Positions 780 through 1,439 of a DNA stretch of 4,590 nucleotides are shown here, piece after piece (position 1 is the stretch's first letter; every line of letters starts with the position of its first letter). Origin of the DNA: a virus (lineage: Duplodnaviria > Heunggongvirae > Uroviricota > Caudoviricetes). Position numbers and translations under genes: made by a program. The DNA is taken from the IMG/VR virus record IMGVR_UViG_2778261459_000005. The stretch is one strand, 5' to 3'. The notes under the pieces are model-generated. The model did not search any database and was not told the DNA's origin. It saw only the letters and a list, made by a program, of their open reading frames with translations.

Positions 780-1439
780 ATGAAAATGAAATGGTATGAA
801 CTGGCTAGATCCAGAATGAAAGAGCTCGGCATAACTCAAGAGAAGTTAGCCGAAGAGCTAGGTATGACGCAGGGTGGGATTGGACACTGGTTGCGCGGAT
901 CTCGTCATCCATCTCTTAGTGATATTGGTGTGGTGTTTAAATACCTTGGTATTGATAACATATCATTCAACCACGACGGGACATTTTCACCTGTTGGCGA
1001 ATACTCATCGGCCCCAGTTAAAAAACAATATGAGTACCCTGTTTTTTCTCATGTTCAGGCTGGGATGTTCTCTCCAGAACTCAGAACCTTTACCAAAGGC
1101 GATGCGGAGAGATTGGTAAGCACAACCAAAAAAGCCAGTGACTCTGCATTCTGGCTTGAGGTTGAAGGTAACTCAATGACCGCACCAACAGGTTCCAAGC
1201 CCAGCTTTCCTGACGGGATGTTAATTCTGGTTGACCCTGAGCAGGCTGTTGAGCCAGGCGATTTCTGTATAGCCAGACTTGGTGGTGATGAGTTTACCTT
1301 CAAGAAACTGATCAGGGATAGCGGTCAGGTGTTTCTACAGCCACTAAACCCACAATACCCAATGATCCCATGCAATGAGAGTTGTTCCGTTGTGGGGAAA
1401 GTTATCGCTAGTCAGTGGCCTGAAGAGACGTTTGGGTGA
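780..1439 (+). CDS. cI: CI prophage repressor (219 aa): novel XRE-type N-terminal DNA-binding domain fused to a lambda CI C-terminal dimerisation/autocleavage (S24 LexA-like) domain
   Basis: From about residue 84 ([29 protein letters not shown]...) to the end (...[12 protein letters not shown]) the protein matches lambda CI as I recall it, including the Ala-Gly cleavage site (VQAGMF), the catalytic Ser (GNSM) and Lys (FKKLI). The N-terminal ~80 residues are unrelated to lambda CI. Start taken as ATG 780; ATG 786 has better spacing to the AAGGA at 774-778 and may be the one used. The TTG-initiated track ORF from 738 is rejected. Confidence 0.93.

Follow-up and report, generated by a model that had tools for sequence, protein, structure and literature searches.

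A lambda-type hinge and C-terminal domain joined to a non-lambda helix-turn-helix domain in the CI repressor of a common immunity group of lambdoid phages

How does a phage repressor gene come to have a second half that is nearly that of lambda cI and a first half without DNA similarity to lambda, and which immunity does such a gene specify? The question is raised by the cI gene of the virus record IMGVR_UViG_2778261459_000005 (Caudoviricetes). The window, i.e. the whole stretch of 4,590 nucleotides (nt) analyzed here, is a lambdoid immunity region whose reading direction is opposite to the lambda map. The cI open reading frame (ORF), which the first-pass annotation of this DNA had singled out as a chimeric repressor, is present in the ORF list at positions 780–1439 of the plus strand; it encodes 219 amino acids (aa) from the ATG at 780 and displays the Pfam domains HTH_3 and Peptidase_S24. 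We assign a probability of about 0.88 to the reading that the protein is the repressor of prophages belonging to a non-lambda immunity group that is already known and very common among Escherichia coli lambdoid phages. The gene resembles a chimera when set beside lambda cI because the segment that encodes the hinge and the C-terminal domain (CTD) is shared among heteroimmune phages.

Window positions 1029–1439 align with lambda positions 37637–37227 (blastn, NC_001416) at 94.9% nt identity; the alignment is ungapped and has 21 mismatches over 411 nt. Similarity sets in precisely at nt 1029 and extends precisely to the cI stop codon. The preceding segment of the gene (780–1028) encodes a helix-turn-helix (HTH) domain and the first part of the hinge and is without DNA similarity to lambda. 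The pairwise alignment with lambda cI at the protein and DNA levels, which had been proposed as a check, thus places the breakpoint at nt 1028/1029, between codon 83 (Gln) and codon 84 (the first Tyr of YEYP); the predicted position was near nt 1029. When identity is counted in ungapped 30-nt blocks from the junction, the upstream blocks have 4–12 identical positions (11 in the adjoining block) and the first downstream block has 30 of 30. Since the upstream identity is at chance level, the breakpoint is a single sharp junction in the hinge.

Lambda CI consists of an N-terminal domain (NTD) at residues 1–92 and a CTD at residues 132–236. The junction corresponds to lambda mature residue 101. 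It is nine residues after the NTD boundary at 92 and 10 residues before Ala111-Gly112, and so just upstream of the autocleavage site as had been claimed. The same codon forms the boundary in an independent pair, 683R2 versus HK97, and the solved lambda fragments 101–229 and 101–236 (2ho0, 8gmu) start exactly at the junction residue.

CI residues 84–219 are identical to lambda codons 102–237 at 135 of 136 positions; one or two changes had been expected. The sole amino acid change (AERL versus lambda AERW) is Leu112, encoded by TTG at nt 1113–1115, in place of the lambda Trp (TGG, codon W130, or W129 in mature numbering). Twenty of the 21 nt differences are synonymous and one is non-synonymous, which gives a synonymous divergence (dS) of 0.27, a non-synonymous divergence (dN) of 0.003 and a dN/dS of 0.012. 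The hinge and CTD are under purifying selection. The W129L change is common to the window, the Shiga toxin (Stx) phage Stx1 Morioka, Nil2, 2G7b, E212, ev207 and 2B8, and Trp is kept at this position in 683R2, E. coli A2 and SCU-104, which have the same NTD family.

The hinge and S24 CTD (1029–1439) match the lambda structures 3bdn, 8gmu, 2ho0 and 1f39 with E-values of 1e-65 to 1e-96, and the Pfam Peptidase_S24 domain (PF00717) has an E-value of 1.1e-28. The codons for Ala94-Gly95 (1059–1064), equivalent to lambda Ala111-Gly112, lie in a VQAGMF context that is identical to lambda, and the two residues are invariant across five repressors. By alignment to lambda, Ser132 (1173–1175) is equivalent to Ser149 and Lys175 (1302–1304) to Lys192, and both are also invariant. 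Ser132 is presumably the catalytic residue, as in LexA/CI S24 peptidases generally. The protein thus displays the features of the autocleaving LexA/CI repressors, i.e. an HTH domain, an S24 Ser-Lys dyad and a hinge Ala-Gly. The 99% identity of its cleavage-site region and CTD to lambda CI suggests that it would undergo RecA-stimulated self-cleavage with prophage induction.

The NTD displays the Pfam HTH_3 domain at CI residues 11–58 (E-value 1.9e-10). An AlphaFold2 model, run without an alignment, has four confident helices at positions 5–16, 20–27, 31–39 and 46–55, and a per-residue confidence (pLDDT) of 80–94 for residues 1–40. The HTH placed by the first-pass annotation at residues 18–37 is found inside the HTH_3 domain, at the helices 20–27 and 31–39. 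Nothing ordered is predicted between the helix region (residues 5–55) and the junction, and no helix 5 is predicted. The modeled CTD has a pLDDT below 50 and is not used, as the lambda crystal structures cover this domain.

The description of the NTD as unrelated to lambda does not hold. Its sequence is about 25% identical to the lambda NTD in a global alignment and matches the lambda NTD crystal chains 1lli (E-value 4.5e-4) and 1lmb (3e-3). Judged from these matches, it is the same HTH_3 fold and a distant homologue of the lambda NTD. It is 18–20 residues shorter and is without the N-terminal arm. A protein-homologue search with the 83-aa NTD gave 12 short fragments and zero full-length relatives. 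A tblastn search of phage records shows that the nearest relatives outside of the family are 47%–55% identical, i.e. the Oslo/epsilon34 type and the C2 repressor of phage L/ST64T, together with proteins of Vibrio, Klebsiella and Proteus phages.

The start of cI varies among records. AP005153 (Sato) and PGAP use the ATG at 744, which gives 231 aa, and the Nil2, 683R2 and Oslo records use the ATG at 786, which gives 217 aa. The ATG at 780 (219 aa) has a Shine-Dalgarno sequence, AAGGA at 773–777, only 2 nt away; the spacing to the ATG at 786 is good. The ATG at 744 is probably an over-extension because it overlaps the putative operator OR3 and promoter PRM. The position of the junction is unaffected by the choice of start codon.

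The immunity group can be recognized from close relatives of the gene. At least 62 phage records contain cI over at least 80% of its length at 97.7%–99.8% nt identity (megablast). These include the Stx1 phage and Stx2 phage II of O157:H7 Morioka V526, Nil2, 1717, 2851, YYZ-2008, the PA series, 2G7b, ev207, ev017, 2B8 and E212. The CI protein is 100% identical to those of the Stx1 Morioka phage, Nil2 and 2G7b, and the NTD DNA is 99.6%–100% identical. Compared with the Morioka phages (AP005153/AP005154, BAC77937; Sato et al. 2003) and Nil2 (AJ413274, CAC95084), the protein shows no difference from MKWYEL onward. Differences between the cI genes of the window and of phages of the Stx1 Morioka/Nil2/2G7b type are only synonymous and fall mostly in the CTD half, and the cargo that follows cI is not the same either. 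The gene is annotated in AP005153 as “CI protein; similar to phage lambda CI”. Several Stx1, Stx2 and Stx2c phages have the window-type cI as their controlling switch.

Cro, encoded at 453–668 on the minus strand (71 aa), is identical at 72 of 72 positions to Cro of the Stx1 Morioka phage and is also identical in 2G7b. Operators OR1, OR2 and OL1 are identical to those of the Stx1 Morioka phage and OR3, OL2 and OL3 are slightly different; OR1 and OR2 are also identical in Nil2, and the intergenic OR region is 95.7%–97.4% identical within the group. The identity of Cro, OR1, OR2 and OL1 argues for placing the window in the Stx1/Stx2-II Morioka/Nil2 immunity group, an assignment made from sequence. 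The features of imm-lambda, i.e. the lambda CI NTD, the lambda operators and a lambda-type Cro, are not present in the window; wild imm-lambda phages have 98%–100% nt identity in the CI NTD part.

This immunity type is more common than that of lambda in complete E. coli genomes. The NTD DNA of the window is found in 776 of 5,426 genomes (802 places) and that of lambda in 618 (633 places). The lambda-type CTD DNA occupies 1,435 places in 1,211 of these genomes. This is exactly the sum of 802 and 633, and thus the two NTDs appear to be the sole partners of the lambda-type CTD in E. coli. By inclusion-exclusion of the genome counts (776 + 618 − 1,211), which is not a direct count, about 183 genomes appear to have both cI types.

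The operator region OR is at approximately 690–775, between cro and cI, and a second operator/promoter region, OL, is at approximately 2965–3040. Six putative 17-bp sites with the half-site consensus AARTACAA are found in these regions, with OL about 2.27 kb from OR. Putative OR1 is at 697–713, OR2 at 729–745 and OR3 at 755–771, with TAC-N5-GTA cores at 700–710, 732–742 and 758–768, respectively; putative OL3 is at 2965–2981, OL2 at 2998–3014 and OL1 at 3023–3039, with cores at 2968–2978, 3001–3011 and 3026–3036. The three plus three putative operators annotated in AP005153 coincide with these independently found sites. Over the whole window TAC-N5-GTA is not enriched (24 matches compared with 16 ± 4 expected), and the support for the operators is their clustering at OR and OL and their agreement with the AP005153 annotation. 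The lambda half-site TATCACCGC, searched with up to two mismatches, has 10 matches in the window where 9.5 are expected, and none of these is in OR or OL.

The window Cro displays the Pfam HTH_3 domain (E-value 4e-12) and is paralogous to the CI NTD, with 35% identity and the recognition-helix motif TQGxIGHW common to both; blastn shows no DNA similarity to lambda cro in the window. The absence of lambda half-sites from OR and OL, the six TAC-N5-GTA sites and the HTH_3-type Cro together point to an immunity specificity unlike that of lambda, in agreement with the first-pass annotation.

The working of the repressor may be pictured as follows. The four-helix HTH NTD would bind the six 17-bp operators, three in OR and three in OL, and would share them with the paralogous Cro. 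The lambda-type CTD would supply dimerization, dimer-dimer cooperativity and possibly looping between OL and OR over 2.27 kb. Inactivation would presumably be by RecA-stimulated autocleavage, as in lambda CI. The oligomerization surfaces are identical to those of lambda except for W129L. With OR2 centered some 43 bp upstream of A780, a self-activated, possibly leaderless, lambda-like PRM is plausible. Residues E21 and E25 align with the lambda positive-control residues E34 and D38, i.e. they are likewise acidic.

Several points weigh against this reading. DNA binding, cooperativity, looping and cleavage are all read from the identity with lambda. W129L is at the boundary of the hinge and the CTD and could affect cleavage or oligomerization. 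The operator spacings are 32 and 26 bp in OR and 33 and 25 bp in OL, compared with 24 and 23 bp in lambda; lambda-like pairwise cooperativity is thus not guaranteed, and the cooperativity may differ in detail. A consensus promoter scan flagged neither PR nor PRM. The putative PRM (−35 at 745–750, −10 at 768–773, start near A780) and the putative PR (−35 at 724–719, −10 at 701–696) have weak hexamers that were placed by eye and follow AP005153. With respect to the evolution of the CTD, which is considered below, the recombination statistics come from 17 hand-picked sequences, and at a dS of 0.2–0.4 part of the incompatibility between sites could reflect recurrent mutation.

The 17 cI genes comprise 10 with the short NTD of the window type and seven with the lambda NTD. 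Their CTD segment has 13 haplotypes and 60 variable sites. Between the immunity types there are 19 shared polymorphisms and 0 fixed differences. Four-gamete incompatibility is displayed by 217 of 435 informative site pairs, the minimum number of recombination events (Rm) is 9 and a test similar to the pairwise homoplasy index (PHI) gives p 0.013. These statistics suggest that the CTD DNA is a freely recombining pool common to both immunity types. Over 1303–1439 the window does not differ from the lambda-immunity phage HK542, and the CTD of the lambda-immunity cI of Sakai prophage Sp1 is 97.3% identical to the window but 95.9% to lambda. The NTD DNA is nearly invariant within each immunity type and the CTD DNA is 91%–100% identical; e.g. 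the window and the Stx1 phage differ by a dS of 0.019 in the NTD and 0.175 in the CTD.

Exchange at the hinge is not confined to this pair of domains. The lambda long NTD is also found paired with the CTD of TL-2011c, which is lambda-related (64%), and with an ST64T-like CTD (HK620/mEpX2 type). All four combinations of NTD family and CTD family exist; the families thus assort independently, and the hinge is a site of repeated exchange. Heteroimmune lambdoid phages would accordingly share one constrained hinge and CTD segment with its left edge at nt 1028/1029 and its right edge at the stop codon. The immunity-specific DNA on the other side of the junction, i.e. the cII N-terminus, cro, OR and the cI NTD (nt 78–1028), would travel as a unit. 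Such a shared stretch between heteroimmune phages offers a concrete mechanism for the swapping of immunity cassettes.

Other explanations of the locus can be considered. The gene might have arisen without recombination, from one ancestral gene in which the NTD diverged rapidly under selection for specificity and the CTD was conserved. NTDs do change faster at the protein level, e.g. the window and Oslo repressors differ by a dN of 0.51 in the NTD and 0.11 in the CTD, with dS saturated in both. However, the CTD has a dS from lambda of just 0.27, whereas the NTD DNA next to it has chance-level identity and a length difference of 54–60 nt. The identity step is inside one codon, which point mutation cannot produce, and a rate difference without recombination is ruled out by this step in synonymous sites at nt 1028/1029. 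We consider this explanation scarcely credible. It is also very improbable that the ORF is a decaying or non-functional remnant in a cryptic prophage. The IS10-type insertion at the right end of the window does mean that the source element may be damaged elsewhere, but the ORF is intact with a dN/dS of 0.012, the identical protein is found in records deposited as phages, including Stx-converting phages, and conservation extends to cro, the operators, cII and N, all of which are intact.

Recombination being accepted, there is the matter of its direction. The first-pass annotation implied that lambda was the donor, and a single and fairly recent graft of the lambda CTD onto a phage with a foreign NTD would account for one sharp junction and a CTD protein that is 99% identical. 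This is improbable. A dS of 0.27 is substantial and means that lambda itself was no recent donor. The CTD alleles are not sorted by NTD type, the Sp1 CTD with lambda immunity is nearer to the window than to lambda, and the combination of a short NTD with a lambda-type CTD is also present in an old relative, Oslo/epsilon34, in which synonymous sites are saturated. The four combinations of NTD and CTD, and a CTD pool common to both types, likewise give the implied polarity no support. The reverse, in which the short-NTD lineage owned the CTD first and lambda CI is the chimera, is a tentative possibility that we hold to be somewhat unlikely. The nearest CTD outgroup, Oslo/epsilon34 (80% aa identity), has a short NTD and is colinear over 217 aa, the long-NTD TL-2011c (64%) is only the next outgroup, and the short NTD is the more common carrier of the CTD in E. 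coli. However, two NTD switches are needed under either rooting by parsimony, the similarity of lambda to TL-2011c (56% in the NTD, 65% in the CTD) fits equally well with vertical descent of the whole lambda gene, and ongoing exchange has erased the signal. Parsimony cannot resolve which of the two families is the recombinant.

Mosaicism at the level of domains, with a conserved CTD and a divergent DNA-binding NTD, is textbook lambdoid biology. The classical modular view, associated with Botstein (1980), Campbell (1994) and Juhala and colleagues (2000), is said to place mosaic joints at gene and domain boundaries. The window cI is one more instance of this modularity and is not different in principle. 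What had been described as a clean case of domain recombination is borne out by the single breakpoint in the hinge, but both the protein and the domain pattern were already known; the gene, the protein and the pattern of an own NTD with a lambda-like CTD are in public records and in the literature. What is mildly new is quantitative only, namely the CTD pool without fixed differences, the exact accounting of two NTD partners and the likely co-residence of both types in polylysogens.

Lambda CI (NP_040628) resembles the window protein in the hinge from residue 101, the CTD, the Ala-Gly site and Ser149/Lys192, and the order of the locus is the same, i.e. cII-cro-OR-cI-cargo-terminator-OL-N. The recognition helices differ, QGGIGHWLR in the window and QSGVGALFN in lambda. 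The Cro proteins also differ: that of the window is of the HTH_3 type and paralogous to its CI NTD, and that of lambda is annotated as “Cro/CI family”.

The repressors of the Salmonella phages epsilon34 (gp46), c341 and vB_SosS_Oslo are 217 aa in length, colinear with the window protein, and likewise have a short NTD and a lambda-type CTD. Identity to the window is about 48%–52% in the NTD and about 80% in the CTD, with synonymous sites saturated. The published operator consensus of epsilon34, WTACRAWWTGTAT, has a core similar to TAC-N5-GTA of the window. However, Cro of the Oslo/epsilon34 type is identical to the window Cro at only 29 of 72 positions, and the immunity is almost certainly different. 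In a 2008 description of the epsilon34 repressor (PMC2629481), its C-terminal protease domain shares about 80% identity with lambda/HK97, and its N-terminal part about 50% with phages L, VT2-Sa and “Ni12”. “Ni12” is Nil2, which was thus named there as a relative of the epsilon34 NTD. The C2 repressor of ST64T (phage L type) has the short NTD family (about 48%) with a CTD of another S24 subfamily, and the CI proteins of HK620/mEpX2/HK630 have the lambda long NTD family (about 49%) with a CTD of that same other subfamily; these two CTDs are 57% identical to each other and about 40%–45% identical to lambda and the window. According to Fattah et al. (2000), as quoted in PMC10742460, VT2-Sa and lambda CI have a high C-terminal and a low N-terminal homology. 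A 2022 survey of Stx-phage CI proteins describes clades with HTH_3 and S24 domains.

The common CTD may have consequences in cells that contain both repressors. Many O157:H7 strains appear to have the intact lambda-immunity cI of Sp1/CP-933H in addition to Stx phages with a window-type cI. Because the CTD is common to both repressors, without fixed differences, and the two types are apparently co-resident in about 183 genomes, mixed dimers or tetramers are conceivable. The CI of a cryptic prophage could in this way titrate or destabilize the repressor of an Stx prophage, or the reverse. We regard this as a long shot for polylysogens such as O157:H7; the literature searched shows no discussion of mixed oligomers of co-resident repressors with this CTD. 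If true, spontaneous induction and toxin output would be changed, and the shared CTD would serve for cross-talk between prophages as well as being a linker for recombination.

Strain Sakai does not show this pairing. Sp1 has a lambda-type cI, but the Stx1 prophage Sp15 has a third repressor type and not that of the window. Sp1 is a cryptic prophage of 10.6 kb with an intact lambda-immunity cI (ECs_0274, locus coordinates 3941–4654), cro and cII, and its cI NTD DNA is 99% identical to lambda. In the Sp15 repressor (ECs_2990, locus coordinates 39885–40532), another NTD meets the CTD at this same YEYP motif, and the CTD is lambda-related but more diverged (…YEYPLFSSVQAG…QWPEETFG). This suggests that the joint in the hinge has been reused by further immunity types.

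The remainder of the window is also a mosaic relative to lambda, as determined by blastn of the window against NC_001416. Positions 1–77, at the 3′ end of cII, are 100% identical to lambda. Positions 78–1028, which comprise the cII N-terminus, cro, OR and the cI NTD, have no lambda similarity. The cII gene (15–311, minus strand, 98 aa, Pfam Phage_CII) is itself an intragenic mosaic: the last 63 nt and 14 nt beyond are 100% lambda (C-terminal LTNKKRPAATERSEQIQMEF), and the remainder is without DNA similarity. The edge in cII and the junction in cI together delimit the immunity-specific block to about 950 bp (78–1028).

Downstream of cI, positions 1440–2790 have no lambda similarity and contain two overlapping cargo ORFs on the plus strand, at 1486–2028 (180 aa) and 2016–2792 (258 aa), in the slot of rexA/rexB. 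These ORFs have weak PADLOC matches to PDC-M24A (4e-4) and PDC-M24B (5e-7), i.e. a candidate defence pair, and Pfam matches to DUF6978 (below the cut-off) and DUF1828. It is plausible that they are a defence moron expressed from the prophage. Among phages that share this cI, most do not have exactly this cargo, and at least 80% of the window is covered in only 8 of 5,426 E. coli genomes. Positions 2791–2918 are 90.6% identical to lambda 35831–35708, just downstream of rexB, and contain a strong intrinsic terminator (2791–2821, plus strand), in which a U-run follows a −17 kcal/mol hairpin and which ends the cI-cargo operon. The block 2791–2918 is a conserved terminator cassette flanking variable cargo.

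Positions 2919–4120, with OL, N and sieB, have no lambda similarity, and two short lambda matches are found at 4121–4265. The N-like antiterminator (3230–3502) displays the Pfam N_peptide domain (E-value 3e-32) and an arginine-rich N-terminus. Upstream of it, at 3087–3113, there is a boxA-like sequence, GCTCTTTAA, with a small hairpin, GTCGA-CTC-TCGAC, which is probably a nutL of non-lambda specificity. The sieB gene is at 3519–4100 on the minus strand, and an ORF with the DUF2528 domain starts at 4361.

The last 77 nt of the window (4514–4590) are the terminal end of an insertion sequence (IS) of the IS10/ISVsa5 type. This sequence has a 100% match in 3,028 plasmid records, mostly at two places each, and in plasmid R100 it lies 31 nt upstream of a transposase of the ISVsa5 family. 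Phage and genome relatives of the window all stop matching at 4510–4513, thus the IS interrupts the DUF2528 ORF.

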